Source: Kiritimatiellia bacterium (lineage in GTDB: Bacteria; Verrucomicrobiota; Kiritimatiellia; CAIVKH01). From it: DNA of 64,000 nucleotides. The stretch's first letter is position 1, and each line of letters opens with the position of its first letter. Under the pieces are notes generated by a model. It saw only the letters and a program-made list of their open reading frames with translations. It had not been told where the DNA came from and ran no database searches. The position numbers and the translations under genes were made by a program. The stretch is from contig JAOSKE010000002.1 in assembly GCA_027493775.1 (NCBI GenBank), forward strand, positions 407,435 to 471,434, written 5' to 3'. Shown piece after piece: positions 6,006-61,936 of this stretch.

Positions 6006-8330
6006 GTTATCCGCCCTCGCGTTCTTGAATCGCTTTCCAAATGGCATTCGGCATGAACGGAGAGCTGCGCATACGAACGCCCACGGCATTGTAGATGGCG
6101 TTGGCGATGCAGGGGAGCGGGCCGTTGATGCAAATTTCGGAAACGCTCTTTGCGCCGTACGGGCCACTCTTTTTCGTAGCTGGGGACCAGAATGGTCTTC
6201 AGCGCCGGCTTGTCCCGCATGGACATGATCTTGTAGTGCGCGAAGGATGGATTGAGCATCCGCCCGCGTGAACTGAAGCGATACTGCTCCGTCAACGCAT
6301 AGCTGATTCCGTTCAACACGCCGCCCTCGGTCTGGCCCTCGGCCAGCTTCGGGTTCACTGCCGTGCCGCAATCCACCGCTGCGACATAGCGCAGGACGCG
6401 CACCCTGCCGGTCAACGTGTCCACCTCCACTTCGCAGAAATGTGCGGAGAAAGGCGGCGGCGACTTGTGCGTGATATGCGAGGAAATCGCGCCAATTTGG
6501 AACTGGTCCGACCCATAGAGCGAGCGCAGCGCGATTTCCGGAGAACGTGACGGATTTTCCATCCGGCCCAAACGCGCAGTTGTCGCGCAGATCGATTTCC
6601 TTGGGTTTGCATTCCATCATCGCGGCGCCAACACCAGCGATTTGTTTGGCAACTTTTTCGGCGACGTTCTTCACCGCCATTCCGCTGAGATACGTCGTGC
6701 TGGAGGCATACGCGCCAACATCGAACGGGGTTGTGTCCGTGTCCGACGAATAGACGATGAGCTTGTCCACATCGCAGCCGACTGTTTCTGCAGCGATTTG
6801 CGCAAGAATGGTATCGCTCCCCGTCCCGATGTCCGTCGCGCCGACCAGCAAATTGAATGACCCGTCGTCATTCATCTTCATCGTTGCCGCGCCCATATCA
6901 ATTTCGGGGATGCTGGATCCCTGCATCAGCGACGCCATTCCGATGCCGCGACGGAAGCGCCCTTTTTTGTCCTGCCAGCGCCCGCGCTTTTTCCAACCGA
7001 TCTCGCGTGCGCCGAGCTTCATGCACTTCTCCATTTCGCAACTGCCGATGGACTGTTCGACGCCCGCCTTTCCTTCTCCCAGCGCCCGGAAAACCGGCGA
7101 TGTTTCACCCGAGCGAATCGTGTTCATCCGGCGGAACTCCAGCGGGTCCATGCCGAGCATCTCCGCCAGCTCATCCATCATGCAATCAATGCCGAACGTG
7201 GATTGCGTCGCGCCATACCCGCGATACGCTCCGCCGACCGGCAGGTTGGTGTATGCGGATTCGCCGACAAAGTGGATGGTTTTGCTGCGGTACAGCGGAA
7301 GAATTTTGCTGCCGCTATTGCACACCACCGTCAGCGCGTGCGCACCGTACGCCCCCGAGTTTGTGCAGCAATCCAACGCAAGCGCACTGATTGATCCATC
7401 CTTTTTCACGCCGGCACGAATACGCATTTTCTCGGGATGTCGCGTCCGGCTGGAAACAAACTCTTCCTCGCGCGTGTATTTCCAATGCACGGCCCGACCG
7501 GTACGCAACGCGAACATGGCAACCACCGGCTCCAGCAGCACCTCCTGCTTTCCTCCGAAGCCGCCTCCGATGCGGGGTTTCACAACGCGAATCCTGCGCA
7601 CCGGGATCTGAAGCACCTGCGCAACGATGCGGCGGACATGGAACGGCACCTGTGTGCTCGTTGTGACAATCACGCGACCATCTACATCAAGATGCGCGGT
7701 CACGATATGCGGTTCAATCGGACAGTGATGCGCATAGTCCGTGTAAAACTCCCGATCAAGCATCGTGTCCGCCGCCTTCAATTCGGCCTCGACATCCCCC
7801 ACGTCCATTGCGACCCGCGCGGCGAGATTCCGCTGCGGTTCGTATGGAACCGGAATCGGGACATGCGCCTCCGGCTCGTCGTGGATCACAGGCGCACCGG
7901 GCTTGAGCGCGTCATCAATCGTGAATACGGCGGGCAGTTCCTCGTACACCACCTTGATCGCCTTCACTGCTGCGGCAGCCTGTTCCGGCGTATCCGCGGC
8001 AACTGCGGCGACGCGATCACCAACGAAGCGCACTTTATTGTCAAACAGGAAGGAATCGTATGGCGAGGGCTCGGGAAAACCCTGTCCCGCAGTCGTGTGA
8101 ACCACACGCGGAACATTGCCGTGATGCAGGATGCAATGCACCCCCGGCATCTTCTCCGCCTCGCTTACATCAATGGATACAATCCGCGCGTGCGCATGGG
8201 GACTCCACAGCGCCTTCACATACAAGGAGTCGGCGGGCTTCAAATCCGCGACAAACATCGGCTTGCCGGTGGCAAGCGAGAGGGAGTCAATTTTCCGGAC
8301 GGACTTTGCGACAACATTAAATTTCTTCAT
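6006..8330 (-). CDS. xanthine dehydrogenase family molybdopterin-binding subunit (XdhD-like); two frameshifts (~6540 and ~6166)
   Basis: N-terminal 600 aa read in the frame of ORF 5973-8330 up to ...GPDGKSVTFS. The middle (FCEVEVDTLTGRVRVL...GQTEGG...ILVPSYEKE) is in the frame of ORF 5891-6571. The true C-terminus GPYGAKSVSEICINGPLPCIANAIYNAVGVRMRSSPF...EREGG-stop at 6006 is in the third frame. Confidence 0.8.
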
Positions 8331-9631: not shown

Positions 9632-11004
9632 ATTTGACCTCCAGCTTTCTTCAACATCATATCCGTCAACTCGTTCGCCCTATGAAAGAGACGCTGCTCA
9701 TCCGTGCCGATCAACTCGCCGCCGGCCACGCGAATGACGCCATTAACGATCGTATAATCCGCGCGCGCACCCGCGCCGCAGAACAGGATGGCGGACGCGG
9801 GATCCGTCATCGCGCCCGCGTATTCAATCCGATCCAGTCGAAACAAGGCGATATCCGCAAGCGCCCCCGGCGCAATACGTCCAATCTCCGGCCATCCGAA
9901 CACCTCTGCGCCCCCGCGCGTCGCCATGTGCAGCACACGACTCGACGGCATCGCGTCAACCGCCGTTCCAACGCGATGCGCCAGCAGCGCCATTTGCATT
10001 TCGCGGCTGAAACTGGAACTATCATTGCTGGCGGAGCCGTCCACTCCGAGCGCAACGCGAACACCCGCCTCCATCATGCGCGGAATCGGCGCAATTCCCG
10101 ACCCCAGCCGCAGATTGGACGACGGACAGTGCGCGATTCCGGTTTTCGTCGCCGCGAGTTTCTGTATTTCACCGTCATTAAAATAGATGCCGTGCGCAAA
10201 CCAGACATCGGGACCCAGCCACTCGTTCTCCTCCATGTATTCGATCGGTCGCTGTCCGAACATCTCGCGGCAGTAATTCTCCTCATCCACGGTCTCGCAC
10301 AAATGCGTGTGACAGATGACGCGATGTGCACGGGCAAAGCGGATTGTCTCCCGTAACAACTCCGTCGTAACCGAAAACGGCGAACACGGCGCGAGGGCCA
10401 GTCGACACATCGAATCCGGCTCGGGGTTGTGGTATTTTGCGATCAACCGGTCACAATCCGCGATGATTTCCTCGTGATGCTGCACCACGTCATCGGGCGG
10501 AAGTCCGCCATGTGATTTGCCCCGGCTCATGCTGCCGCGTGTGGGATGGAAGCGAATGCCCATCGCGCGCGCGGTTTCAATTTCCACATCCACCAATTCC
10601 CGCGTCACACCACGCGGGAAAACGTAAAAGTGATCCGAGGTGGTTGTGCAGCCGGACAACAACAGCTCGCCGATCCCGACACGCGCGCTGATATCCACCG
10701 CCTCCGGCGTAAGCCAGCGCCAGATTTCGTAAAGATTTGTCAGCCAGTCGAACAGTTTCGCGTTTTGAACGGCCGGAATGTTGCGCGTCAGTGTCTGATA
10801 AAGATGGTGGTGCGTATTGATGAAACCGGGGTAGAGCACATGGTTGCTCGCATCAATCACCGACGCGCCGGGTGGCGCGTCGAGCGACGGCTTAATCGCG
10901 GCGATTCGATTGCCCTCCACAAGCACATCCACGTCATGCACAGGCTGCTCGCCATCCACCATGCTGACGAGGGTCTGCACCCGTTTTAGAAGGATGGCAC
11001 TCAA
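9628..11004 (-). CDS. amidohydrolase-family deaminase (8-oxoguanine/guanine deaminase-like)
   Basis: Metal-binding motif GFINTHHHLYQT and typical amidohydrolase C-terminal half. Start is ambiguous: TTG at 11004 (after GGGGGAG) or GTG at 11019; the ORF track ATG at 11112 overlaps the upstream gene. Confidence 0.75.
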   Translation of the reverse strand: MSAILLKRVQTLVSMVDGEQPVHDVDVLVEGNRIAAIKPSLDAPPGASVIDASNHVLYPGFINTHHHLYQTLTRNIPAVQNAKLFDWLTNLYEIWRWLTPEAVDISARVGIGELLLSGCTTTSDHFYVFPRGVTRELVDVEIETARAMGIRFHPTRGSMSRGKSHGGLPPDDVVQHHEEIIADCDRLIAKYHNPEPDSMCRLALAPCSPFSVTTELLRETIRFARAHRVICHTHLCETVDEENYCREMFGQRPIEYMEENEWLGPDVWFAHGIYFNDGEIQKLAATKTGIAHCPSSNLRLGSGIAPIPRMMEAGVRVALGVDGSASNDSSSFSREMQMALLAHRVGTAVDAMPSSRVLHMATRGGAEVFGWPEIGRIAPGALADIALFRLDRIEYAGAMTDPASAILFCGAGARADYTIVNGVIRVAGGELIGTDEQRLFHRANELTDMMLKKAGGQI

Positions 11005-12316
11005 TGGATTCTCCCCCACAACGCACGCGCGCGCTCGTTTGCCTTTCTTCGTATTCCGGCTTCGTCGAGATGCGAAATGACGCCGTTTTCCAGCAACACG
11101 CGACCACGGCAAATCGTTGTCGTCACCGGCGCGGCGACTAGGCCGAACAAGAGGTGACCGTAAAATGTGGAGGAGTTGAAGGGGGTGAACGGGCGATAAT
11201 CAAAGATTGCGATGTCCGCCAGACACCCCGGCGCAAGACGTCCGCGCGGCTCCGGGAAAATACGGTCGCAAATCGCGCGGTTATTTTCCAACAACAGCCG
11301 ACACGCCTCAACAAATGCCACGCGCGGGTCGCGACGGATTGCGCGTTGCGCGAGATACGCCGCGCGCGCCTGTGCGATCAATTGGTTGGACATGCCATCC
11401 GTTCCTAGACCAAGCAGGATCCCATCGCGCAGAATTTCGAGCAACGGCGTCATCCTAAGTCCGTTGTTCATATTCGACTCGGGATTCGTCGCCATCATGC
11501 TGTCCGATTCGGCGAGCATCTTCCGGCCGCGCTCGTCCAGATGAATTCCGTGCGCGAAGATGGATTTCGGCCCGACAATGCCCGCGCGCTGGAAGCGATC
11601 AATCGGGAGCGCGCCAAATTCGCGCAGCGACGCTTCTCCATCGCACTCCGCCTCATCAATATGCACATGAAAGCCCGTGTCCAGCGCCTGGCCTTCCGCC
11701 GCACAGCGCTCCAGCGTGTCGGGGCTGAGTGTCATGGATGCGTGCAGGCCGAACAGCGGTTGTATCTGAGGGTTCTTCGCCGTCCGGCATTTCTTAATGA
11801 ACCGGATATTCTCCGCGACCCCTCCCCCTTCTTGTTGCGGTCTGACACTTCGTAGCAAAGGCAGCCATTCAATCCGGCCTCACGGAACGCGCGCTCGACT
11901 ATGTCAAGGCTTCCATCCGCGCAGGCGGGCGAGGCATGATGATCAATAATCGTTGTGCATCCGGCATGAATCGCCTCCACGCAGGGAAGAATGGACGAGT
12001 AATAGACATCCTCCGCGTCCAACGCGGCGTCGAGTTTCCACCAGAGCCGTTCGAGTATTTCCTGAAAGTTTTTCGCCGGCTCGCCCGGCGGCGAGAAGCC
12101 GCGCGCCAGGGTTGAATACAGGTGATGATGCGCATTAATCAGGCCGGGCATGACAATGCGGCCTTCCGCATCAATCGTGCGATCCACTCTTTCCGTCGCC
12201 ACACGACCGACGGCGAGAATTTTCGTGTCTTCCACGAGAATGGAGCCGTTTTCAATGATGGCCCCCGCGTCATCGAGCGTCACCAATGTTCCGTTTTGTA
12301 TTAATATGCGGCTCAT
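11001..12316 (-). CDS. ssnA: SsnA-like amidohydrolase; frameshifted in C-run 11819-11828
   Basis: N-terminal ORF 11732-12316 (MSRILIQNGTLVTLDD...GLINAHHHLYSTLARG) and C-terminal ORF 11001-11858 are in different frames; the junction ...EVSDRNKKGEG/VAENIRFIKKC lies in a C4/C5 run. Confidence 0.75.
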
Positions 12317-29285: not shown

Positions 29286-29723
29286 ATGGTATATCCTATC
29301 GCAAGATTAGATTGGTCGCTGGATCCGTTCAACGGGCTTCACAGGCTTCATCGCGATATGAATCGTCTCTTTGCCGGGTTTGCGTCTCCGGCCGAGCGAT
29401 TTCCCGCAATAAACCTTTGGAACTCGGAAGACGGCATGGTGCTGGCTGCCGAAATTCCGGGCGTGGACCCGAAGGATGTCGAGGTATCGGTGCTGGGCAA
29501 CGTGGTCTCGGTGTCGGGTGAGCGCAAAACGGATTCGTCCGTTCCTGCGGATAATTATCACCGCCGCGAGCGCGAGGCCGGAAAGTTCACGCGCTCGATC
29601 CGCCTGCCCTACGAGGTCGAATCAGACAGCGTTCAGGCTCGGTATGAGTTCGGAACACTGCGCGTCACATTGCCGCGCAAGGAGGCAACCAAGCCACGGC
29701 GCATCGCAATCAGCGCGGAATAA
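29286..29723 (+). CDS. Hsp20/alpha-crystallin family small heat-shock protein (1 of 3)
   Basis: Alpha-crystallin domain (WSLDPF...MNRLFAGF...ARYEFGTLRVTLPRKE); perfect AAGGAG 8 nt upstream of the ATG. Confidence 0.9.
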   Translation: MVYPIARLDWSLDPFNGLHRLHRDMNRLFAGFASPAERFPAINLWNSEDGMVLAAEIPGVDPKDVEVSVLGNVVSVSGERKTDSSVPADNYHRREREAGKFTRSIRLPYEVESDSVQARYEFGTLRVTLPRKEATKPRRIAISAE

Positions 29724-29736
29724 GGAGCAACACAAA

Positions 29737-30126
29737 ATGACAACACAGACAGCAGAGCTTCAAACGAAAGAAAATGAGCGGACACGCGATCTCCCGGTTG
29801 CTGTGCCAGCAACGGATATTTACGAGACCGAGAACGGAATCGCACTGTCCGTGGACTTGCCCGGCGTGCGCCAGGAGCAGGTCGAGGTAACGCTTGAAAA
29901 TCGAGTGCTCACGATCAGTGCGCGAAGCGAAGCGGTGGATCCGGCGGGTTACGATGCCGTTCATCGCGATTTCGAGCCGGTCGAATATCGCCGTTCGTTC
30001 ACACTCACGGAGGATGTGGATCGCGCGGCAATCAGCGCACGGCTCAAAAACGGCGTTCTACACCTCGCGCTGCCCAAAGCTGCGGAATCGCAGCCGCGAC
30101 GCATTGAGGTAAAGACGGAACATTAA
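29737..30126 (+). CDS. Hsp20/alpha-crystallin family small heat-shock protein (2 of 3)
   Basis: MTTQTAELQTKENERTRDLPVAVPATDIYETENGIALSVDLPGV...NGVLHLALPK; AAGGAG upstream; 13 nt after the previous stop. Confidence 0.85.
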   Translation: MTTQTAELQTKENERTRDLPVAVPATDIYETENGIALSVDLPGVRQEQVEVTLENRVLTISARSEAVDPAGYDAVHRDFEPVEYRRSFTLTEDVDRAAISARLKNGVLHLALPKAAESQPRRIEVKTEH

Positions 30127-30147
30127 TGAGGAAGGAGGTGATGGAAA

Positions 30148-30663
30148 ATGAAAAAGAACTTGGTTCCATGGCGCAGACGCGCAAGCGACTCCGCGATGGC
30201 GCGGCACGAGGACAATCCTTTCGCCGACTTCCATCGCCAAATGAACCGGCTGTTCGATGACTTCTTCTCGGATTTCGAGGATAGGCCCTTCGGGCTACGG
30301 CTCCCCTCCGCGTTCGAGCGCACCGACACGGCCACGCCCCGCGTGGATGTGTCGGAAACGGACAAAGAGGTGACGGTGAAAGCCGATCTCCCCGGCATCG
30401 CGGAAAAGGATGTTCAAGTCACACTTGATGAAGATGTCCTGATCATTCGCGGGACACGCGAAGATGAGCGGGAAGAAAAGAAGCGGAACTACCACATCGT
30501 GGAACGCCAATACGGCGAATTCCAGCGAAGCGTCCCGCTACCCGGCGGAATTGACGAGGAACACGTAAAGGCCAGCTTTGAAAAAGGCGTGCTGACCGTG
30601 ACCCTGCCGAAACTGCCAGAAGCGCAGTCGAGAAAGAAAACGATTGCGGTGACGAGCGAATAA
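30148..30663 (+). CDS. Hsp20/alpha-crystallin family small heat-shock protein (3 of 3)
   Basis: ...FADFHRQMNRLFDDFF...VKADLPGIAEKDVQVTLDEDVLIIRG...KGVLTVTLPK; GGAAGGAGG upstream. Confidence 0.9.
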   Translation: MKKNLVPWRRRASDSAMARHEDNPFADFHRQMNRLFDDFFSDFEDRPFGLRLPSAFERTDTATPRVDVSETDKEVTVKADLPGIAEKDVQVTLDEDVLIIRGTREDEREEKKRNYHIVERQYGEFQRSVPLPGGIDEEHVKASFEKGVLTVTLPKLPEAQSRKKTIAVTSE

Positions 30664-30668
30664 ACATC

Positions 30669-30704
30669 GAGGGCGCGGCGCCCGCCGCGCCCTCTCTATT
30701 TATT
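30669..30704 (+). terminator. rho-independent terminator after the hsp20 operon
   Basis: GAGGGCGCGGC-gccc-GCCGCGCCCTC (11-bp GC-rich stem) followed by TCTATTTATT, between convergent hsp20 and alaS. Confidence 0.6.
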
Positions 30705-33385
30705 CCAAAAGTTTTTCAGCAGCAGCAAGCGCGGCGTCCAGCTTTGACGCATCCTTGCCGCCGCCTCGCGCGAAGTCAGGTTTGCCACCGCCACGTCCAC
30801 CGACAATCGGAGCAATCGTTTGAATAATTTTTCCCGCCTGCGCCTGCTTTGTGTAATCCGCAGAAACAGAGGCCAGGAGCGCGACCGCGCCAGCGCTCGC
30901 CGCGCCCAATACGACGACCCCCGCAAAACGCGATTTGAGATGATCCGCAATCGCGCCCATGGTATCGCCGTCCACTTCGCCAAGATTCGCGACAATCGTC
31001 GGACGGCCGCCGCGCGTGACCGCCTGCGCGCACAACGCTTCGGCTCGCTCCGCGGCTTGCTTCAAATGAAACGACTTCAATTGTTTTTCCAACGCCTTCT
31101 GATGCGCAAACAACGCCTCAACACGTTTCTCCATTTCGGCGGGCGCAGAATTCAGCGCAGCGGCGGTGCGCTTCAATTGGTGTAGATCATCGGCGACAGA
31201 CTGCCAACCGGATAAACCGGCAACGGCTTCAATGCGACGAATCCCCGCAGCAATTCCGCCCTCGCCGACAATCCGGAACAAACCGATTTCACCGGTCGCG
31301 CGTGTATGCGTTCCGCCGCACAGCTCCATCGAATAGCCGTTCAGCTCGCCCGGTGCGCCACCGATCTGCACAACGCGCACAACATCGCCGTATTTATCGC
31401 CAAAGAAGTGCATGACATCGGGGCGCGCCTTCACATCGGCATACGCGGTTTCCCGCCAACTCACCGGCGCGTTCTCGACAATTCGCTCGTTGACCAATCG
31501 CTCAATATCCGCCACCTGCGACGGCGTCAGCGCAGCGCTGTTGAAGTCGAACGTGAGCTTGTCCGGGCCGACATACGATCCCTTCTGACTCGCATCTGGA
31601 CTGACCACTTCGTGGAGCGCCCAGTGAAAAATATGCGTTGCGGTATGATGCCGTTGAATCGCATTACGCCGCGACATATCCACGGAAATAGAAATTTCGG
31701 CCCCTGCTTCCGGAGACTCGCCGCCGTCAACAAAGTGAAGCCAGGCATCTCCCGCCTTTTGCGTATCAACAATGCGCCAAAGCCGACTGCCTAATCGAAT
31801 CTGCCCCGTGTCGCCGACCTGTCCGCCCATCTCGGCATAGCACGGGCTCTGATCGAGAATAACCGCAACGCGGCCTTTCACATCGAGCACATCCTCCACC
31901 CGCGCCGACGCTTCAAAATGGTCGTAACCGACGAAGTCTGTTTTCACTTCGCTCGCAATATCGGCCACCTCAATCACGGTCTTTTTCTGCGCGGCGCGCG
32001 CACGGGCGCGTTGCTCCTCCATATGCTTTTCAAAACCGATATGGTCCACGCCCAACCCCTGCTCGCGCGCCATCAACTCGGTCAGATCGAGCGGAAAACC
32101 GTAGGTGTCATACAGCTTGAACGCGAATGCGCCATCCAACGATTCCCCACGCGCAAGGCGGTCCGCACGTTCATGAAACAACTCAATGCCGCGATCAAGG
32201 GTCCGATTGAACGCCTCCTCTTCCACGCGAATCGTTTCCTGTACGGCTTTTCTGTGCACGCGAATTTCGGGGAATACATCGCCCATTGTTTCGGCGAGAA
32301 CATCCACCAACTTGAAAAAGAAAGGCTCGCCAAATCCGAGCGCACGGCCGTAGCGGACGGCGCGGCGCAGGATCCGACGTAGCACGTAATGGCGATCCGT
32401 ATTACCCGGTTGAATTCCATCGGCAATGGCAAAACTTAACGCGCGGATATGGTCGGCAATCACGCGAAACGCAACGTCCACCTTCTCCTGCTCCGTCTCG
32501 CCCGCGCTGCCCGTCGCAGGAAGCGTCGAGCCATAGTTTTTTCCGCTCAAGCGTTGCAGCGCATCGAAAATCGGGCGGAACACATCCGACTCGTAGTTGG
32601 ATACCATCCGGCTGAAGTCGGTGAAATTTTTTGTGCATTGCATGATTCCCGCAACGCGCTCAAAGCCCATCCCGGTATCCACATGCTTTGCCGGGAGCGG
32701 ACTGAAAGAACCGTCCGCATCGGCATTGAACTGAATGAACACGAGATTCCAAATCTCAATACACTCCGCAGAACCCTTGTTCACCAATGCACCACGCGTG
32801 TCGCCAGCGGGGGTCAGATCAATATGAATTTCCGAGCATGGCCCGCAAGGCCCCGTGTCGCCCATCATCCAGAAGTTGTCCTTCTTGTTGCCGTTGACGA
32901 TGTGTTCCCCGGGATCAAGTCCGGCGCTCGTGAAAACTGCAGCCCATTGATCGTACGCTTCTTGATCAAATTCCGACGGATCACCCGCGCTCTTGTCCGG
33001 ACTGTACACCGTCGCGTAGAGGCGCTCGGCAGGAAATTTCCAGACCTTCGTCAGCAATTCCCACGCCCACTCGATCGCCTCCTTCTTGAAGTAATCGCCG
33101 AACGACCAGTTGCCGAGCATCTCGAAAAAGGTGTGGTGATAGGTATCGAGTCCGACATCCTCTAAATCGTTGTGCTTACCGCCGGCGCGAATGCACTTTT
33201 GCGTATCGGCCGCGCGACCGGGATGATACGGACACGACTGCTGGCCGAGAAAGATCGGTACAAACTGATTCATTCCCGCGTTCGTGAACAATAGATTCGG
33301 CGAATCCGGCATCAGGCTCGACGACGGCACGATGGTGTGTTGCTTCGACTTGAAAAAGTCGAGGTACGACTGACGAATTTGGCTG
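30700..33385 (-). CDS. alaS: alanine--tRNA ligase
   Basis: Class II aaRS AlaS motifs across ~894 aa (FTNAGMNQF, catalytic core, editing domain HTATH...CGGTH, C-terminal DHHA1-like). Start at tandem ATG 33385/33382 (MMTSSQIRQ); the ORF track start 33519 adds an implausible extension. Confidence 0.9.
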
Positions 33386-33564
33386 GAAGTCATCATAAAA
33401 CTCTTCAAAAGAAGGCGAAACGATAGGCAAACGCGGCCCGCAAGACCAGCGGAAGTTTGGGGGCGGCGCAAATGCCGGAATAACGCTAAAAACTTGCCGT
33501 ACATCCGCACACCAAGCACACTTCGCCCCAGATTTTATTTGTAAAAGGGTGATAAGAACCATTT

Positions 33565-33611
33565 TTCCAAGGGTTGGAAGTCCCGCAAAGGGTCTTTTCC
33601 AACCCTTGGAA
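33565..33611. promoter_or_regulatory. pair of 15-bp palindromic sites TTCCAA-N3-TTGGAA (candidate operator) upstream of proB
   Basis: TTCCAAGGGTTGGAA (33565-33579) and TTCCAACCCTTGGAA (33597-33611), exact reverse complements, centres 32 bp apart, ending 21 nt before the proB ATG. Confidence 0.55.
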
Positions 33612-33631
33612 GTTTCTGATAGAGTGGCGCC

Positions 33632-34774
33632 ATGGCTGTCGAAAAATCCATTCGAACTCGTCTGACGAAGGCCCAGCGGATCATCGTAAAGATCGGAAGT
33701 CGCGTGATTGTTCAGCGCACGGGCCGCCCCGACCGGCGACGTATGCGCGAATTGGTCCGTCAGCTCGCTGCTCTTCACAAAGAAGGGCGCGAAGTCGTCG
33801 TGGTCTCTTCGGGCGCGATTGGGAGCGGAATCGAAGCGTTGGGCTGGCGCAAAAAACCCACGACGTTGAAGCTGCTCCAAATGGCGGCAGCGGTGGGACA
33901 ATCGCGATTGATGGCGGAATACGACGAACTCTTTGCCGCGCACGATATTCGGATCGGTCAGATTTTGCTGACGCACGAAGACCTACGCCACCGCACACGG
34001 CACCTCAATGCGTCGGCAACGATCACCACACTGTTGGAACATCGCGTCATTCCGATCATTAACGAAAACGACGTGGTTGCAATTGATGAGATAAAATTCG
34101 GCGACAACGATTTACTCGCGGCATTGACCAGCCTGCTGATTCAGGCCGACGCGCTGGTTCTCCTGAGCACCGTGGACGGATTTCGCGCACCCGCCGGAAA
34201 AGGCCGCACCCGCCGCGTTCCCACACTGGCCGGGGTTGGGGAAAAAGAACTGGCGCTTGCGCTGGGCAAAGGCAGCGCGCTCTCCACCGGAGGGATGGCG
34301 AGCAAGCTTCAATCCGCAGGGATGGTCGCCGAAAACGGAATTCCTGTTGTCATTGCCAACGGGCGTTCCGACGGCGTGCTTGAGCAAATTTTGGCAGGAG
34401 CGGATATTGGAACGTTGATTAAGGCAAACGTGTCGCCCAGCGCTCTCTCGCGCCGAGAGCGCTGGATCACACTATTCCACCGCCCTGAAGGCGCGTTGGT
34501 CGTGGACAACGGCGCACGCGTCGCGCTACTCGAAAAAGGCCGCAGTTTGCTGCCGGTCGGCATTCGCGAGGTGGAGGGCCATTTTGAAGCTGGCGCCGTG
34601 GTCAGTATTAAGGCGCTGGACGGTGCAGAAATTGGGCGGGGACTGTGTACCTTTTCCAGCACAGAAATGCGCCTGATGAAAGGTCGGCACTCCAAAGAGC
34701 TGGAGGCGATTCCCGGACATACCGAAGCGCCCGAAGCGGTCCATCGCGACAACCTTGTTTTTCGTAAGAAATAG
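33632..34774 (+). CDS. proB: glutamate 5-kinase with C-terminal PUA domain
   Basis: ...RIIVKIGSRVI...VVVVSSGAIG...INENDVVAIDEIKFGDNDLLAA... plus PUA domain. Confidence 0.9.
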   Translation: MAVEKSIRTRLTKAQRIIVKIGSRVIVQRTGRPDRRRMRELVRQLAALHKEGREVVVVSSGAIGSGIEALGWRKKPTTLKLLQMAAAVGQSRLMAEYDELFAAHDIRIGQILLTHEDLRHRTRHLNASATITTLLEHRVIPIINENDVVAIDEIKFGDNDLLAALTSLLIQADALVLLSTVDGFRAPAGKGRTRRVPTLAGVGEKELALALGKGSALSTGGMASKLQSAGMVAENGIPVVIANGRSDGVLEQILAGADIGTLIKANVSPSALSRRERWITLFHRPEGALVVDNGARVALLEKGRSLLPVGIREVEGHFEAGAVVSIKALDGAEIGRGLCTFSSTEMRLMKGRHSKELEAIPGHTEAPEAVHRDNLVFRKK

Positions 34775-48663: not shown

Positions 48664-50344
48664 TTACGGAACCCTGAAGTTTGCGGTCAACTCAACGACC
48701 TCTTTTCCGACGGCCTCTATGACCGATTCGTTTTGCGGGTCGTTGAGCACGCGCGAAATGAATCCCGCAATACGGGCCATTTCCTTTTCCTTCATTCCGC
48801 GCGTGGTCAACGCGGGAGTGCCGAGACGAATGCCCGAAGTGACAAAGGCGCTCTTGGTATCGAACGGAATCGTGTTTTTATTGACCGTGATGTTCGCCCT
48901 ATCCAGCGCTACCGCCGCGTCCTTTCCGCTAAGCCCCGCAGCGCCGACATCCACGAGCATCAGGTGATTGTCCGTGCCACTGGAGCAAATCCGGAAGCCT
49001 GCATCCATCATCCCCTTCGCCAAGGCCCGCGCATTGGCAACGATCTGTTTCGCGTAGTCCGCGAACGACGGCTGCAGTGCCTCGCCAAAGCAAATCGCCT
49101 TCGCAGCAATAATATGCATCAGCGGCCCGCCCTGAATGCCGGGGAATACCTGCTTATCGAGATCTGCCGCAAATTTTTCGCGGCACAAAATCAAGCCACC
49201 GCGCGGGCCGCGCAGCGTCTTGTGCGTCGTCGAGGTGACAAAGTCGGAATAGGGAACCGGAGCTCGGATGCGCACCGCCCGCGACCAACCCCGCGATGTG
49301 CGCCATATCCACCATCAGCAACGCGCCGACACTGTCCGCAATCTCGCGGAAACGCTTGAAGTCAATGATGCGGGAATAGGCGCTCGCGCCGGAGGTGATT
49401 AGTTTCGGACGATGCTCCTTCGCAAGACGCTCGATCTCGTCGTAGTCAATCTGCTCCGTGTCCTGCCGCACGCCGTACGGAATCACCTTATAGTAACGGC
49501 CCGAAAAGTTCATCGGGTGACCGTGGGTCAGGTGTCCGCCATGCGAGAGATTCATCGCGAGAATCGTGTCGCCCGGTTGCAGCACTGAAAAATAAACCGC
49601 CATATTGGCCTGACTGCCGCTGTGCGTCTGCACATTCGCGTGCTCCGCGCCGAACAACTGCGTCACGCGGTCAATTGCAAGCTGCTCCGCTTTGTCCACA
49701 CACTCGCAGCCGCCGTACCAGCGCTTCTTGGGATAACCCTCGGCGTACTTGTTCGTCATATTGCAGCCAGCAGCCTGACGAATCGCGCGGCTCGTGTAGT
49801 TTTCGGAAGCAATCAGCTCCAAATTCCGGCGCTGCCGAACGCCCTCTTCCGTAATCGCTTCGAAGATCGGTGAATCGTGCTTGGCGATGGAGTCCAATCC
49901 CCCGGCAATGTTGCTCGATTGTTCAATCTTTTCGATGCGGCGAACGTGGCGGCCGCCCTCAAATTCTGTCGCAAACCACTTCTCTAAAATTGCGGGAATC
50001 TCCGCAGTCGGCGTCGTCGCCGCACCAAAGACGATGATATTTGCATTGTTGTGCAAACGTGCAAGTCGTGCCATTTCGGGCGAAACGATCAAAGCGGCGC
50101 GAATGCCGGGATAACGGTTCGCAGTGATGCTCATCCCCACGCCGGTCTTGCAGATCAACAAGCCCTGATCAAATTCGTGATCCGCAACGCGACGCGCAAC
50201 GACGCTCGCGTAGTCAGGATAGTCCACCGACTCCGGCCCAAAAGCGCCGATGTCCTCAACCTCAACGCCACGCTTTGTGAGCAGGTCCTTAACCAACGCC
50301 TTCATCTCCACGCCGCCGTGGTCGGAACCAATAATCATCTTCAT
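48664..50344 (-). CDS. glyA: ribose-5-phosphate isomerase B fused to serine hydroxymethyltransferase; frameshifted near 49264
   Basis: Residues 1-145 are RpiB ([11 protein letters not shown]...[15 protein letters not shown]...[13 protein letters not shown]), running without stop into SHMT ([11 protein letters not shown]...[11 protein letters not shown]). The SHMT C-terminus ([25 protein letters not shown]...) is in the frame of ORF 48664-49275. Confidence 0.75.
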
Positions 50345-50844
50345 TGTTCTTCGCTCTCCGTCTTCCGTTTCAATTGTTTCGTATCTTCCAAAATCGTCAG
50401 CAGCACATCCGCGATCGCGCGGTCAATTCGGTCGCGCGTGAAGCGATACACATCCAGCGACATCCCGATCGGGTCTGGAATATCCTCCATCCGCCGATCC
50501 GTGCCGAATTCCGTCAGCAGGCGCACCCGATCCCGCGCCTCGGGGAACATCGAAAGCACCGCCTGTGCATGACCGCGCGTCATCACAATAATCCAATCGG
50601 ACTCTTCCACCAACTTTTGCGTCAGTGGCTGGCTGCGGTGCTGGCGGACATCAATCTGCCACTCGCGCAGTGCAACCAACGCCTCCGCGCTCGCGGGCAC
50701 GCCCGTCAGTGCGGCGACGCCGGCGGATTTTACGCGCCAACCCGGACGGTTTCCGAGCCGATGCCGCAAAATCGCCTCCGCCATCGGGCTGCGACAAATG
50801 TTGCCCGTGCAGACAAACAAAACTTGATGTGTAGCTTCAGCCAT
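50341..50844 (-). CDS. low-molecular-weight protein tyrosine phosphatase (or arsenate reductase-like)
   Basis: P-loop motif [17 protein letters not shown]. Start at ATG 50844 preceded by GAGAGAGGGAAA; the ORF track start 50916 runs through the palindromic operator. Confidence 0.8.
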
Positions 50845-50878: not shown

Positions 50879-50925
50879 TTCCAAGGGTTGGAAGAACCGT
50901 TCCGCGCGACTTCCAAGGCTTGGAA
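50879..50925. promoter_or_regulatory. pair of 15-bp palindromic sites TTCCAA-N3-TTGGAA (candidate operator) upstream of the PTP/rpiB-glyA operon
   Basis: TTCCAAGGGTTGGAA (50879-50893) and TTCCAAGGCTTGGAA (50911-50925), centres 32 bp apart, 35-81 nt upstream of the minus-strand start at 50844. Confidence 0.55.
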
Positions 50926-50944: not shown

Positions 50945-52264
50945 TTACAACGCGGACGATAGCGGGCCGGGCCGGATATTCAAGGCTTTGAGTCCCAACA
51001 AAACATCCACGGCCCGCTGCAACGCCGCATCGCCGCGAATCCGGTCGCGCAACGCGAGGTCGGAATCTTCCTGATCCAATCGAATCCGACGATCCACCCC
51101 CAGCTCCGGCTCGTACTCAACTTTGCCGGGGCCCGCAGGCAGAATCACGGTCGGTTTCACGCCCGACCGCCCGTCGAGCACGATGCCATCTCCCACAAGC
51201 AGCTTCCGCGTTGCAATGCAAAGTGACTCGCTGTCAGAAATGGAAATGACATCGCGGATGGCGGGGTCGCCCGCAGTCTCGCGCCCGATCACGAGCGTTC
51301 CGCGCAAGCTGCCTGCCGCCGTCGCAGCCAGCGCTTCCGCCGCGCCGGAAGTGTGTTCGTCCACGAGAACCATCACAGGCAAATCAATCGGCGCGGATCC
51401 ACCGGCTTGATAGTTCGTCAGCGTATTGCCGTCGCGATCGAGAAATGAAAACAGCGCCGAACCGGGCGATGCAAACGCGCCGGCAATCTGCGCCGCGCTG
51501 GCAACGTCGCTCCCATCTGCACCGCGCAAATCGAGAATGCCTCCCGCGAGTTTTGCGTCCGCCCACGCCTGCAACTGCGTCAACACCCCCTCGCCGGAAC
51601 CCGCATTCAATCCATTTACTCGCGCATAGCCGATGTCGCGCGGCCACATTTCCGAAACTTCGAACAGGGGGAACGGCGACAACACCCGCTCAACGCGAGT
51701 GGTGGCGGGAGCATTCGTGCCGCGCACGTAAATCAGCTCCGTGCCGCCCGCCGTATGGCCGCGCAACTGGCGCAACGCATCGCTTAACGTGACGTTGGTG
51801 GCCGGCGCGCCCTGAATGGAAATAATGCGATCTCCCGTGCGCAAACTCTCCCCAAGGTCGGCTGGCGCGGCGACGACCACCGGCGTTGCATTCGAAATGG
51901 TCAGGCGGATATCCGTGTGGTAATCCACGCCCGCTTGTTCGTGTTGCCAGTGCTCCAACTCAGCCGCGGTGAAAAGTCGCGCCTGCGGATCCACGATGCG
52001 CGCAACACATTCGTAGAGCGGCGCACGTTCCTCGTCGCCGGTCAGTTGAATGCCGTGCGCCGCCAGATTCGCCAACAGCGCATCCACGTCGGCAACCAAT
52101 GGGTGTTTTGCGGGATCAGGCTCCGGCGTCGTCGCGACAACTTCTGCGTCGAGTTCCAAGACCGGCTCCGCAGCGAGATTCTCCTCAGCAACCTGCGCAT
52201 GAAGGCCGACAGGCAAAAGAAGTACGCCGAAGAGAAACAGCAGTATTTGTCTTAGTTCATTCAT
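50945..52264 (-). CDS. S41-family peptidase (C-terminal processing protease-like), secreted
   Basis: Signal peptide MNELRQILLFLFGVLLLPVGLHA; S41-like catalytic region (...VLVDEHTSGAAEALA...). Confidence 0.65.
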   Translation of the reverse strand: MNELRQILLFLFGVLLLPVGLHAQVAEENLAAEPVLELDAEVVATTPEPDPAKHPLVADVDALLANLAAHGIQLTGDEERAPLYECVARIVDPQARLFTAAELEHWQHEQAGVDYHTDIRLTISNATPVVVAAPADLGESLRTGDRIISIQGAPATNVTLSDALRQLRGHTAGGTELIYVRGTNAPATTRVERVLSPFPLFEVSEMWPRDIGYARVNGLNAGSGEGVLTQLQAWADAKLAGGILDLRGADGSDVASAAQIAGAFASPGSALFSFLDRDGNTLTNYQAGGSAPIDLPVMVLVDEHTSGAAEALAATAAGSLRGTLVIGRETAGDPAIRDVISISDSESLCIATRKLLVGDGIVLDGRSGVKPTVILPAGPGKVEYEPELGVDRRIRLDQEDSDLALRDRIRGDAALQRAVDVLLGLKALNIRPGPLSSAL

Positions 52265-53544
52265 AGCAAAAGCGCCCGCCATGCAATATCCTTCCGATAG
52301 TGTGCGTTCGCAAAGCTAATTTTTTCGGCCGCCCCGTATGCCCGCGACACCGCATCGCGCAAACTCGCCCCCATTGCGGTCACGCCGAGAACGCGACCGC
52401 CGTTTGTGACCACTTCCCTGTCCTTTAATAGAGTCCCCGCGTGGAACACCACAGCGCTCTGTTGTTGCGCGGCTGCTGACAGCCCGGAAATTGTGTCGCC
52501 ACACGCATACGAGCCGGGGTAGCCGCCGGCCACCATTACGACGCAGGCACAGGCTTCGTCCTTCCACCGTACAAGCTCATCGCGCAGCTCGCCGTCCGCG
52601 CACGCATCCAGCGCGGGGAGCAAATCGCCGTCCCAACGCGGGAGAATCGCCTGAATTTCGGGATCGCCGAAGCGACAATTGAACTCAAGCACCCTCATAC
52701 CACGGGCGGTCAGCATCAATCCCGCGTACAACACGCCGCGATAGATGATGCCGCGGTTGCGAAGCTCCCTCAGCGTCGGTTCAAAAACAGTCTTGCGAAC
52801 AACTGGCCACAACTCGTCGCTCACGACAGGCGCCGGTGAATAGGCCCCCATCCCGCCCGTGTTTGGCCCCTGATCGCCATCGAAAACACGTTTGTGATCC
52901 TGCGCAGAGGCGAGCATCACAAGATGCTCGCCATCGGTCAGCGCGAGGATGGATGCTTCCTCTCCTTCGAGAAATTCTTCAATCACAACTTGCGCGCCGG
53001 AGCTGCCAAACGCGCCGCGCACCATCATTTCTTCAATCGCCGACTCCGCCGCCGTCAGCGTCTCGCAAATCACAACGCCCTTCCCCGCCGCTAGTCCGTC
53101 GGCTTTCACAACCAATGGCAGTTGCGCCCCACGCGCGTAAATCAGCGCTTCGCCGACTTCGGTGAACGAGGCCGATTTGGCTGTCGGCACACCCGCCTTG
53201 AGCATCACGTCTTTGGAAAAAACCTTGCTGCCTTCGATCTGAGCGGCGGCCTTGTTCGGCCCGAATACGCGCAAGCCTTCGGCCTGCAATCGGTCTGTGA
53301 GCCCGGCGCACAAGGGGGCTTCCGGCCCGATGACGACGAGGTGCGGCCGATGTTCAATTGCCCACGCGACAAGTCCTTCGCAATCCGTCGCGGCAAGATC
53401 AAGGTTCGTTGCGATTTCCGCCGTTCCCGCGTTTCCGGGCGCGCAGACCAAGCGCGGTTGCGCACTGTCCTGCGCGAGCTTCCACGCCAACGCGTGTTCG
53501 CGGCCCCCGCCGCCGACAATTAAAATCAGAGGATGGCTGTTCAT
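52261..53544 (-). CDS. purD: phosphoribosylamine--glycine ligase
   Basis: MNSHPLILIVGGGGREHALAWKL... ATP-grasp pattern; 427 aa. Confidence 0.9.
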   Translation of the reverse strand: MNSHPLILIVGGGGREHALAWKLAQDSAQPRLVCAPGNAGTAEIATNLDLAATDCEGLVAWAIEHRPHLVVIGPEAPLCAGLTDRLQAEGLRVFGPNKAAAQIEGSKVFSKDVMLKAGVPTAKSASFTEVGEALIYARGAQLPLVVKADGLAAGKGVVICETLTAAESAIEEMMVRGAFGSSGAQVVIEEFLEGEEASILALTDGEHLVMLASAQDHKRVFDGDQGPNTGGMGAYSPAPVVSDELWPVVRKTVFEPTLRELRNRGIIYRGVLYAGLMLTARGMRVLEFNCRFGDPEIQAILPRWDGDLLPALDACADGELRDELVRWKDEACACVVMVAGGYPGSYACGDTISGLSAAAQQQSAVVFHAGTLLKDREVVTNGGRVLGVTAMGASLRDAVSRAYGAAEKISFANAHYRKDIAWRALLL

Positions 53545-58983: not shown

Positions 58984-61936
58984 ATGGCTATTCGTATTGA
59001 GGTCGGACTTCGTGACGGTGTGCCGGATGCGCGAGGGGCGGGGGTGGCTGCGGGGGCGCGCGAGGTGTTGGGGGCGCGGGTGGAGCGGTGCGCAGTGCGG
59101 GAATTTTTCTTAATCGAAGGGGCGTTGTCGCCCGCCGAAGTTGAGTTGGTGCGGGGCGCATTTGTTGATCCGGTCACACAAGTGGCAGCGGTGGATCGGC
59201 TCCCTGCCCCATCGGATTTTTCCTACGCGCTGGAGGTGGGGCTGAAGCCAGGGGTGACGGACAATCTGGGCCGGACGGCGGCGACGGTGATCGGCGACAC
59301 GTTGGGGCGCGAGGTGGCAGGTTGCGAGGTGTTCACCGGAACTCAGTATTTCCTGTGGGGTGAGGTGTCGCGTGAGGAGGCGGAGCGGATCGGATGGGAG
59401 TTGTTGGCGAATCGGCTGATTCAAACGGTAGGCGTATTTTCGGGCCGAGAGTGGGTTGTGCGCGCTGTCGGGCGCGATGCGCCGCTGGTGCGGGAAAAGA
59501 GTGCGGTGGAGGCGCGCACATTCGATCTGGAGGTGAGCGACGAGGCGCTACTGGAGATCAGTCGCAAGGGCGTGTTGTCGCTGTCGCTAGAGGAAATGCG
59601 CGCGATTCGGGAATATTACCGGAACGAGGCGGTGCGCGGGGCGCGCGTGGCTGCGGGGCTGCCGGAGTGTCCGACGGACGTGGAGCTGGAGTGTATTGCG
59701 CAGACGTGGAGCGAGCACTGCAAGCACAAGATTTTTTCGGCGCGCGTGCGATACACGGATGAGCACGGCGAGACGCGGGTGATTGATTCGCTATTCAAGA
59801 CGTTCATCAAGGCGGCAACGGCCGAGGTCGGGCGTCGAGTGGATTGGCTGGTATCGGTGTTCAGCGACAACGCGGGGGTCGTGAAATTTAACGAGCGGTG
59901 GAATGTGTTGTTCAAAGTAGAGACGCACAATAGCCCGTCGGCGTTGGACCCGTATGGGGGAGCGATCACCGGAATCGTGGGCGTGAACCGGGATGCGATG
60001 GGGACGGGAGTTGGCGGTGAGATGCTCTGTAATGTGTGGGGATATTGCTTCGGGCCGCCGGATTTCGCGGGAGATTTGCCGGAAGGCTTGATGCATCCGC
60101 GTCGGATTCGCGACGGCGTTCACACGGGGGTGATTGACGGCGGAAATCAGAGTGGGATTCCGTGGGCGCGCGGATGGGAGCTGTTTGACGAGCGATTTCT
60201 GGGAAAGCCGTTGGTGTTCTGCGGAACGGTCGGAAAGCTCCCGGTGACGGTGGGAGGTGAGCCGTCGGAGCGAAAGGAAGCACTGCCGGGCGATTTGATC
60301 GTGCAGGCGGGGGGCGCATTGGGAAAGACGGAATTCACGGGGCAACATTCTCATCCGTTGAGCTGCGCGAGGAATCGCCAGCGCAGGCGGTGCAAATTGG
60401 GGATCCGATTACACAGCGAAAGCTGTACGAATTTTTAGTCGAGGCGCGGGATGCTGGACTGTTTCGGGCAGTGACGGACAATGGCGCAGGCGGATTGAGC
60501 AGCTCGGTCGGTGAGATGTGTACGTTGAGTGGTGGAGCGGAGGTGGATTTGACAGAGGCACCGCTAAAGTATGAAGGGCTGCAACCGTGGGAGATTTTTC
60601 TTTCTGAAGCACAGGAGCGGATGACGCTGGCGGTGCCGCCGGAGAAATGGAAGGCGTTTGCAACATTGGCGCGGCGTCGGGATGTGGAGGTTGCGCGGCT
60701 CGGACATTTCACGGGTTCGGGGCAATTGCGGATATGGTATCAGGGGCGACTATACGGGGCGCTGGCGCTGGAGTTTCTGCACGAAGGTTGTCCACGAATG
60801 GAGATTCCCGCAGTGTGGTCGGCGCCGCGCGTGGCAGCGCCACCGCCACTGCCAGAGGGAGACTGCCCCGAGTGGGTCGTGCGCGTGTTGGAGGCGCTGA
60901 ACATTCGCTCAACGGAAGAAAAGAGTCGGATGTACGACGGGGAAGTGAAGGGCCTGAGTGTGGTGAAACCCTACGTGGGGGTGCGGAGCGATGTGCCGAG
61001 CGATGCGACAGTGATACGCGTGGAGTACGGCGAACACGAGGGGATCGCGCTGGCCGAGGGCGTGAATCCATTTTTGTCGGATTTGGACACGTACGCGATG
61101 GCCGCATCGGTCGTGGACGAAGGGGCGCGTCGAATTGTCAGCGTGGGCGGGCGCTGGGATCAGATTGCGGGGTTGGACAATTTCTGCTGGCCGGACCCGG
61201 TGCTGTCCGAGGGGACGCCCGACGGGCCGTATAAGATGGCGCAGTTGGTGCGGGCAAATCAGGCGCTGTACGATGTGTGCGTCGCGTACGGAATACCACT
61301 GATCAGCGGCAAGGACAGTATGAAAAACGACTCGGTGCGGGGCGGGCGCAAAATTTCGATCCCCCCACCCTGCTATTTTCGACGATTGGAAAACTGGACG
61401 ATGTGCGAAAGGCAGTAACCATGCCCTTCAAGCGCGCGGGCGATGTTATTTTTGTGCTGGGTCTCACGCGGGACGAATTGGGCGCATCGCTGTTTTATCG
61501 TCTGCGCGCCCGCGCGGCGGCGACGCCGGATCAAATTGGCGGCGCGACACCGGGGTTGGATGTGCACGTCGCAAAGCGGCTGTACGCGGCAATGAACGTG
61601 GCGCAGTCGCGTGGCTTGGTGCGGTCGTGCCATACGCCGACGCGCGGTGGATTGGCCGCTGCATGTTGTCTCGCCGCACACGGCGGCGGGTTGGGCGCGG
61701 AGATTGACTTGGAGCGCGCACCGAACAATGACGTTTCACTGGATGCGTTGTTATTCGCGGAGAGCAACAGTCGTTTTGTCACAACCTGCGCACCGGAATG
61801 CGCGGCGCAGTTCGAAGAAGTCTTCGCGGGCCTGCCGTGTGCGCGCGTGGGATTTGTTTCAGCGGAGCCGGAGGTGGCCGTGAGGTATGCGGGCCGCGAG
61901 GTCTTCCGTTGGCGCGAGGCGAACAGCGCTCGATAA
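58984..61936 (+). CDS. purL: phosphoribosylformylglycinamidine synthase PurS-PurL fusion; two frameshifts (G-run 60309-60314, C-run 61361-61366)
   Basis: PurS-like N-terminus (MAIRIEVGLRDGVPDARG...), then PurL AIRS domains. The frame changes at ...IVQAGG/RIGKDGIHGATFSSVELREE... and again at ...KISIPP/TLLFSTIGKLDDVRKA...; the three ORF-track pieces 58966-60438, 60390-61418 and 61277-61936 join into ~984 aa. Confidence 0.8.

Follow-up and report, generated by a model that had tools for sequence, protein, structure and literature searches.

Paired palindromes upstream of proBA belong to a helically phased box family dispersed over Kiritimatiellota

Are the two palindromes of the form TTCCAA-N3-TTGGAA that stand immediately upstream of proBA in a Kiritimatiellia bacterium an operator of these genes, or are they local copies of a more widespread element? 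They lie in a stretch of 64,000 nucleotides (assembly GCA_027493775.1, contig JAOSKE010000002.1, positions 407,435 to 471,434; hereafter the window), for which a sequence-only reading had proposed paired sites for a dimeric helix-turn-helix regulator or, alternatively, a conserved promoter architecture. Here, we find that they belong to a family of boxes, TTCCAA-nSn-TTGGAA, which is dispersed over the phylum Kiritimatiellota, lies largely between genes and is spaced by whole turns of the DNA helix.

A box family and its helical spacing

At no more than one mismatch, TTCCAA-N3-TTGGAA has four matches in the 64-kb window against 0.14 expected, a number that none of 100 shuffles reached, and the four fall into two pairs, S1 upstream of proB and S2 upstream of a low-molecular-weight (LMW) protein phosphatase gene (Table 1), each with a centre-to-centre distance of 32 bp. 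The pairing and its recurrence with the same spacing at 50879-50925, both described by the sequence-only reading, are thus confirmed. At two to three mismatches the count is at chance level (25 versus 23.6 expected), and S1 and S2 are therefore the sole copies in the window. When each pair is read toward its downstream gene, the two show an identical layout that the first reading had missed, TTCCAAG[GC][GC]TTGGAAGTC-N13-T[CT]TTCCAACCCTTGGAAGTTT, and also have in common the sequence right after the proximal box (TTGGAAGTTTyTG). The claim that the paired boxes are exact reverse complements of each other applies to S1 only: the second box of S2, centred on GGC, does not mirror the first exactly, and among neighbouring boxes of the family 104 are direct versus 61 inverted, which makes the relation seen in S1 incidental and not a family rule.

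The genome-wide search for motif pairs that had been suggested as a check was carried out on one genome per species, with two exact boxes 8-32 nt apart, and returned at least 116 loci from 46 assemblies. Nearly all of these are metagenome-assembled genomes (MAGs) labelled Kiritimatiellia/Kiritimatiellales, Pontiella or Tichowtungia, or carrying the older labels Lentisphaerae/Verrucomicrobia; Pontiella (class Kiritimatiellia) and Tichowtungia (class Tichowtungiia) represent two classes of Kiritimatiellota, both of which have boxes. The loci are 8-kb blocks of MAGs, picked for holding a pair, and the family counts given here refer to the loci listed by the scan. They contain at least 387 exact boxes in 185 clusters, most commonly of two boxes (107 clusters), otherwise of one (42), three (21), four (10), five (2) or six (3). 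A search of the literature on the motif, on palindromes of Kiritimatiellota and on repetitive extragenic palindromes (REPs) in Verrucomicrobia found no description of a TTCCAA-nSn-TTGGAA box. Rfam 15, run on the whole window, reported only a tRNA at gathering score, and the matches gained at the E-value threshold were all to generic models of hairpins (miRNA precursors) and fell far short of the respective gathering scores. The boxes apparently constitute an undescribed family.

The position matrix of 382 boxes gives the consensus tTTTCCAA-n-S-n-TTGGAAAa, a palindrome of 15-19 bp with a T-run before and an A-run after the box. Its twelve arm bases are nearly invariant and the same across the two classes, and the centre position is taken by G or C in 99% of the boxes. 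Exact boxes outnumber those with one mismatch by 382 to 81, a ratio that, like the densities reported below, is biased upward because the scan demanded two exact boxes. Of the 81 mismatches, 53 break pairing between the arms, and compensated double changes are few (six versus about one expected by chance), so the arms are conserved as sequence and not as structure. A single box folds only into a weak hairpin (-4 to -5 kcal/mol; two G-C pairs in the stem), complementarity of the flanks ends 2 nt beyond the box, and the centre base has no orientation bias relative to the 3' or 5' end of the nearest gene (p = 0.13 and 0.55).

The distances between neighbouring boxes are quantised at 21-22, 30-33, 41-43, 52, 62-64 and 73 bp, with a few values off or beyond this series (46, 66 and 95 bp). 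Within the range of 23-47 bp that the search pattern forces, all but one of the spacings (46 bp) fall at 30-33 or 41-43 bp. For the 19 spacings outside the forced range, the resultant length peaks at 0.88 with a period of 10.5 bp. Which multiple is used depends on the lineage: 32 bp is preferred in the MAG CAIVKH (42 of 46 spacings), 41-43 bp in Tichowtungia MAGs, and 22 and 30-31 bp in rumen MAGs. Spacing in whole helical turns, with multiples that vary by lineage, speaks for duplex DNA being recognised from one face; neither a fixed hairpin loop nor a single copied unit would produce such a pattern.

Genomic placement

To place the boxes relative to genes, we used our own self-trained codon-usage caller, which reproduces the expected window genes, instead of a naive longest-ORF map, whose "inside gene" calls had misled. 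According to this caller, 83 clusters lie in gaps between tandem genes, 21 in divergent gaps, 19 in convergent gaps and 47 inside called genes. Several of the latter are start-codon miscalls; others lie in long open reading frames (ORFs) with coding signal on both sides. Boxes in convergent gaps with strong genes on both sides are unambiguous. Scatter at random through coding regions, which would have spoken against a functional element, is thus not what we see, as the boxes are largely intergenic.

In the sampled 8-kb blocks of box-rich MAGs, boxes are found in about half of all intergenic gaps that measure at least 40 bp, whatever the gene orientation. For four such MAGs, boxes were found in 13 of 22 convergent, 43 of 88 tandem and eight of 20 divergent gaps of this size, a trend in the direction of the gap preference of REPs but with divergent gaps not avoided, and one to be read with the small numbers and our own gene caller in mind. 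The density reaches about 0.6 boxes/kb in the sampled blocks of some MAGs, mostly intergenic, versus 0.06 boxes/kb in the window. Many clusters start 1-10 nt past a stop codon. The genes flanking the boxes bear no relation to one another, and an all-against-all BLASTP comparison of 717 predicted proteins from the loci revealed no family enriched beside boxes.

Boxes are also present on five viral or prophage contigs. The regions L204 6055-10912 and L200 are 100% identical over 3.6 kb; both belong to box-bearing viral or prophage contigs, as do L203, L207 and L210. The viral or prophage pair with GGG/CCC centres resembles S1 and stands 8 nt past one stop codon and 12 nt before the next ATG. A Prevotellaceae MAG and viral contigs have other arrays, of a GTTCCAA-N3-TTGGAAC-like palindrome (L036 3313-3372; L038 354-411; L209 7607-7846; L199/L201/L202) with periods of about 22, 28 or 36-60 bp, the viral ones with an A/T centre; these are probably iterons with no relation to the boxes that the search pattern picked up as well.

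Conservation in the window's lineage and the proBA promoter

The lineage of the window is box-poor, with only one pair in the 11.5 kb of L222 in addition to the low density of the window itself. The window itself falls in the group of the box-bearing MAGs: its alaS has 76% DNA identity to that of a Kiritimatiellia MAG, and its LMW phosphatase is identical to that of a "Kiritimatiellae bacterium" MAG. Six relatives with ProB 80-100% identical carry two boxes 31-32 bp apart in the alaS-proB gap, and S1 is kept together with a conserved extended -10 element in L214, L062, L215, L216 and L219. Between the window and L062, which has two extra boxes, the S1 block is identical at 55 of 66 positions (hand count, alignment A1), and the rest of the intergenic region is unalignable. 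Relatives at 80% identity show the arm variants TTCCAG, TTACAG/CTGTAA and TTGCAA (L215-L219), some of which form asymmetric hybrids unable to pair as hairpins. S2 is kept in L221 and L222, with spacers identical at 15-17 of 17 positions and differing centre triplets. Compared with the intergenic DNA around them, both pairs are under purifying selection. A lack of conservation at orthologous promoters, which would have undermined the first reading, was not found down to about 80% ProB identity. Beyond this, proB orthologs of at most 78% identity, including metagenome orthologs at 55-61%, are without boxes; among the proB upstream regions of 80 metagenome loci, the closest (55-61% identity) have none and the rest belong to other groups.

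Table 1. Features of the two box pairs and their neighbouring genes in the window.
Feature	Positions	Strand	Remarks
S1 distal box, TTCCAAGGGTTGGAA	33565..33579		169 nt from alaS start codon; kept in orthologs L214, L062, L215
S1 spacer, 17 nt, GTCCCGCAAAGGGTCTT	33580..33596		Orthologs keep the length, and the sequence in part
S1 proximal box, TTCCAACCCTTGGAA	33597..33611		Spans roughly -35 to -21 in the proB promoter as predicted; 20 nt between box end and proB ATG (33632)
Extended -10-like element, TGaTAGAGT	33617..33625	+	6 nt before proB ATG; from ortholog alignment
proB (glutamate 5-kinase)	33632..34774	+	AA_kinase and PUA domains; followed by proA
proA	ORF end 36143	+	Aldedh domain
alaS	30700..33396	-	Divergent from proB; tRNA-synt_2c seen in an ortholog
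S2 box nearest LMW phosphatase gene, TTCCAAGGGTTGGAA	50879..50893		Minus strand TTCCAACCCTTGGAA; ends 34 nt before ATG (50844)
S2 spacer, 17 nt, minus strand GTCGCGCGGAACGGTTC	50894..50910		Identical 17/17 in L222, 15/17 in L221
S2 distal box, TTCCAAGGCTTGGAA	50911..50925		Minus strand TTCCAAGCCTTGGAA; 19 nt past S41 peptidase stop codon
LMW protein phosphatase gene	50341..50844	-	Downstream of S2; rpiB-glyA next, same strand
S41 peptidase gene	50945..52282	-	Upstream of S2, which falls between this and the LMW phosphatase gene; Pfam-checked

The alternative suggestion of a conserved promoter architecture is borne out at proBA. Just past S1, a block T.TG.TA.A.T that ends 6-10 nt before the ATG is kept in six relatives, with T62, G63, T65, A66, A68 and T70 invariant in the alignment of six orthologous upstream regions (alignment A2). 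This putative extended -10 element (TGnTAnAnT), 8 nt past the proximal box, is specific to the S1 locus; the comparison of S2 with L221 and L222 yielded no conserved -10 downstream. A strict sigma-70 consensus scan called no promoter at proB, so that it is conservation that carries the promoter call. Given that the element lies only 6 nt from the ATG, the proBA mRNA would be leaderless or nearly so. With the start predicted accordingly, the proximal box would extend over the -35/spacer region and the distal box would be centred at about -60. An occupied proximal box should therefore modulate initiation, most simply by repression.

Several neighbouring features were noted along the way. In the window, RpiB is fused to serine hydroxymethyltransferase (GlyA) at 48664-50344 on the minus strand, where the frame is broken near 49154-49275 into two overlapping ORFs, either by a frameshifted gene or by an assembly indel. 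Further split or truncated ORFs comprise an amidohydrolase in two adjacent pieces (11004-12283), an alpha-amylase fragment (138-566) and an AIRS_C-only fragment (61421-61933), and together the split ORFs suggest assembly indel errors; the box spacing stands nevertheless because the orthologs confirm it. Three tandem HSP20 genes occupy 29436-30663. The gap between hsp20 and alaS, which converge, has an inverted repeat of 23 nt (30658-30705; G+C-rich, arms 87% complementary, 2 nt apart) that looks like a bidirectional terminator. Among the relatives, the alaS of L219 (1-1395; product on record 1116 aa) has a weak Y1_Tnp match inside the tRNA-synt_2c region, and the portion examined ends in a Gly/Ala/Pro/Arg-rich insertion, which may be a repeat or transposase insertion. 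A small gene of the PDDEXK_3 nuclease family is located between proB and proA in L216 (2683-3060), L219 (2682-3059) and L220 (2652-3035), but not in the window.

What the boxes may be

The explanation that we favour, with about half of our confidence behind it, is that the boxes are duplex sites for one conserved homodimeric, oligomerising DNA-binding protein, dispersed as a family over the phylum. Sites for a symmetric dimer are suggested because the sequence is conserved, the G/C centre is fixed, the spacing follows the helix, orientation is free and selection is purifying where boxes are rare. In the proposed mechanism, a single conserved homodimer would bind TTCCAA-nSn-TTGGAA on double-stranded DNA, and dimers on adjacent boxes would touch on the same helix face, usually three turns (31-32 bp) and sometimes two or four turns apart. 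Judging by how many sites box-rich genomes have and where these lie, the protein would be an abundant architectural or global factor rather than a repressor of one pathway. Through an added copying process, to which the genome-specific centre triplets point, the boxes would have multiplied in some genomes, while the box-poor lineage of the window would keep them at fixed places, and at proBA an occupied proximal S1 box would hinder RNA polymerase. The idea of paired dimer sites put forward by the sequence-only reading therefore survives in conserved arms, helical phasing and free orientation; the idea that they form a private proBA operator does not, given the number of loci and assemblies.

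The nearest known geometry is that of Lrp/AsnC arrays. In these arrays the sites have AT-rich centres, unlike the fixed G/C centre of the boxes. Lrp-type regulators bind clustered dyad sites that share a helix face, with two or three turns from centre to centre, and their dimers bind cooperatively and wrap the DNA (PMC2995911). The likeness is one of geometry only: dyads of about 13-15 bp in clusters, phased on one face at two and three turns, as found here in the 21-22 and 30-33 bp spacings, to which 41-43 bp and the periodicity of 10.5 bp are added. In addition, the window boxes adjoin the amino-acid genes proBA, glyA and alaS. The boxes differ in that they are also placed at gene ends and in convergent gaps.

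A number of observations weigh against the favoured explanation. The centre triplet is specific to the genome: the probability that two boxes share it is 0.74 within an assembly versus 0.15 between assemblies, and TCA/TGA is found in 76 of the 77 boxes of one MAG. Several of the triplets that typify a genome (ACC, ACA and CCA) are asymmetric and would not be imposed by a symmetric dimer, and the spacers of one genome resemble each other weakly. Triplets and spacers together fit the copying of a repeat unit better than the independent selection of sites. Two boxes can, moreover, pair into a long single-stranded hairpin (S1: -36.4 kcal/mol, z = -4.45), which leaves room for a hairpin-based role of paired boxes. 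Whereas natural Lrp-type sites are degenerate (PMC2995911), the boxes are nearly exact. Finally, whereas the family, its anatomy, phasing, distribution and orthologous conservation are observed, the binding of a protein, the nature of that protein and the sign of any effect on proBA are inferred. As a selected feature, the long inter-box hairpin was rejected, since direct neighbours outnumber inverted ones and flank complementarity stops after 2 nt. A tentative variant, which we consider possible but would not bet on, joins binding and copying in a phylum-wide punctuation: a conserved architectural protein would oligomerise over two to six phased boxes in the gaps that separate transcription units, where it might, for instance, block transcription or supercoiling, and copying independent of REP-associated tyrosine transposases (RAYTs) would leave the genome-specific triplet.

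The same triplets and related spacers are at the core of a rival that we regard as rather doubtful, namely that the boxes are a selfish repeat akin to REPs, to REPINs or to miniature inverted-repeat transposable elements, in which a 47-bp doublet (box-spacer-box) is copied by a dedicated enzyme via a single-stranded hairpin. The copies at proBA and the phosphatase gene would then be a record of past insertions, having at most some side effect, for instance protection of mRNA 3' ends. High and very uneven copy number, arrays that resemble tandem duplications, copies in long ORFs and the ability of the doublet to fold into a long hairpin all agree with such a repeat. So does the fact that a pair may be present or missing at orthologous gene ends: the position of a pair in L024 is taken by GC-rich hairpins in L016, and L059 and L094 have a pair at the same orthologous 3' end, each with the triplet of its own genome. 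REPs themselves are short palindromes, often near stop codons, that occur in doublets or arrays and carry a GT(A/G)G or CGTC tag (PMC3733652, PMC2817692). A REP system further implies more than 100 copies per genome, largely outside genes, with convergent and unidirectional ORFs as the usual neighbours and divergent ones as rare neighbours. The REPs and bacterial interspersed mosaic elements of Proteobacteria share with the boxes the short palindrome, the uneven copy number (for the boxes, high in the sampled blocks of some MAGs), the mostly intergenic position as singles, doublets or regular arrays, the proximity to stop codons (PMC3733652), within 1-10 nt in many of our clusters, and the occasional location inside genes. 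However, they are GC-rich and imperfect, whereas the boxes are AT-rich and nearly perfect, have no GTAG/CGTC tag in the 382-box matrix and do not require alternating orientation. REP sequences evolve together with their RAYT and vary from one lineage to the next (PMC2817692), unlike the box arms, which are identical in the two classes. Nor does a copied hairpin fit easily with inverted neighbours not being favoured, the weak fold of a single box, divergent promoter gaps not being avoided, or purifying selection on both pairs in the window's lineage, and a single copied unit leaves the lineage-dependent two, three or four turns unexplained. A tblastn search of about 1.3 Mb of loci with RAYT and IS200-family sequences found two Y1-type genes, an intact RAYT-like one in L077 and one in L088, neither of which is flanked by TTCCAA boxes; the L077 gene is flanked by another repeat and L088 has no nearby box, and an association of boxes with RAYTs was rejected on these grounds.

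Two explanations of a more local kind fare worse. A dedicated helix-turn-helix regulator with a small regulon of proBA and the phosphatase-rpiB-glyA operon, as the first reading had it, appears quite improbable to us. Dyads 32 bp apart stand in the same orientation just upstream of a start codon at both loci and are kept in close relatives, the proximal S1 box overlaps the conserved promoter, and in the low-density MAG AS-MESO-3CA.351 the other two sampled pairs are also upstream of genes (an aminopeptidase gene and pyrE). Classical helix-turn-helix two-site operators likewise combine dyads on one helix face, overlap with the -35/spacer region (as at S1) and conservation in close relatives, but the copy number of the boxes and their placement at unrelated genes exceed any single regulon. 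In other members of the phylum the motif is found next to hundreds of unrelated genes and also where convergent genes end, the more distant proB orthologs (55-78% identity) are without it, a -10 at a fixed distance from terminal boxes is absent in general and not conserved after S2, and a Pfam scan of 30 of the 60 predicted window ORFs, small and mid-sized, detected no DNA-binding domain and hence no regulator gene, in line with the earlier statement that none can be identified in the window. That the boxes are transcription signals, either a -35-like element or the hairpin of an intrinsic terminator, is very unlikely. TTGGAA does match four of six bases of TTGACA, including the leading TTG, and is followed by N17-TAnnnT at L018 and, less exactly, at L111; at S2, a terminator scan picks out CTTCCAACCCTTGGAAG with TTTTTGG directly behind it, and boxes are common at gene 3' ends. 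Yet TAnnnT occurs in 0-2% at every offset from 8 to 29 nt past terminal boxes, toward gene start or gene end, so that the box is not a general promoter element, and boxes lie in convergent gaps, where no promoter is expected. The -35 role, which would call for a TAnnnT hexamer at a constant 16-18 bp, was rejected for want of a -10 at any fixed offset. A T-run before and an A-run after the box is the reverse of a terminator, in which a G+C-rich stem-loop runs straight into a U-tract, the stem has two G-C pairs, the four-box array of L207 is followed by a separate canonical terminator, and the window uses a GC-rich hairpin (30658-30705); the terminator was rejected for its tracts on the wrong sides, its weak stem and the separate terminator in L207.

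In single cases, but not as a rule, a box can double as a -35 element: at L018 5554-5650, in front of an aminopeptidase gene, 17 nt separate the outer TTGGAA arm from the -10-like hexamer TATGCT downstream of it, and L111 (around 7640-7800) has TTGGAA-N17-TACATC before a tRNA gene. REP-like repeats of other kinds are also present in the loci. In L077 (6350-7450), the RAYT-like Y1 transposase gene sits between arrays of a G+C-rich repeat, GGAGACGCCGCGCCCTCGCGCCGCAATCCCCCC, and this unit of a Kiritimatiellae MAG is classical REPtron-like and separate from the TTCCAA boxes. In L059 (about 1450-2700), a long intergenic stretch full of GTAG-type REP-like repeats (CTGTAGCGGCGCGCTATGCGCGCCG...) adjoins a TTCCAA pair, so that such REPs coexist with the boxes as an element of their own.

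Among phylum-wide words, the palindrome HIP1 (GCGATCGC) of cyanobacteria invites comparison. It is very abundant across the phylum without an agreed function, 8 bp long, GC-rich and recognised by DNA methyltransferases (PMC5861425, PMC4390886). HIP1 and the boxes are alike as short palindromes kept across a phylum at high copy, and the boxes differ in being 15-19 bp long, largely intergenic and arranged in phased pairs or arrays. An uptake-signal or HIP-type word, whose core would be strongly over-represented all over the genome and also in coding DNA, was rejected for the boxes, since the half-site TTCCAA is only mildly enriched in the window (62 versus 37 expected), with eight of the 62 coming from the boxes.

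If the favoured explanation is true, what looked like a local operator opens the way to a genome-wide feature, so far undescribed, of a phylum that has been little studied, in which one near-invariant palindrome would mark many intergenic regions in some genomes and a few promoter-proximal places in others. The motif is sharp enough that it could be used to fish out its binding protein directly. For annotation, it would be wrong to treat the boxes as gene-specific operators, and proBA in the window's lineage is apparently leaderless, expressed from a predicted extended -10 promoter. Box-poor and box-rich lineages would then offer a natural experiment on the expansion of a regulatory or architectural site family.

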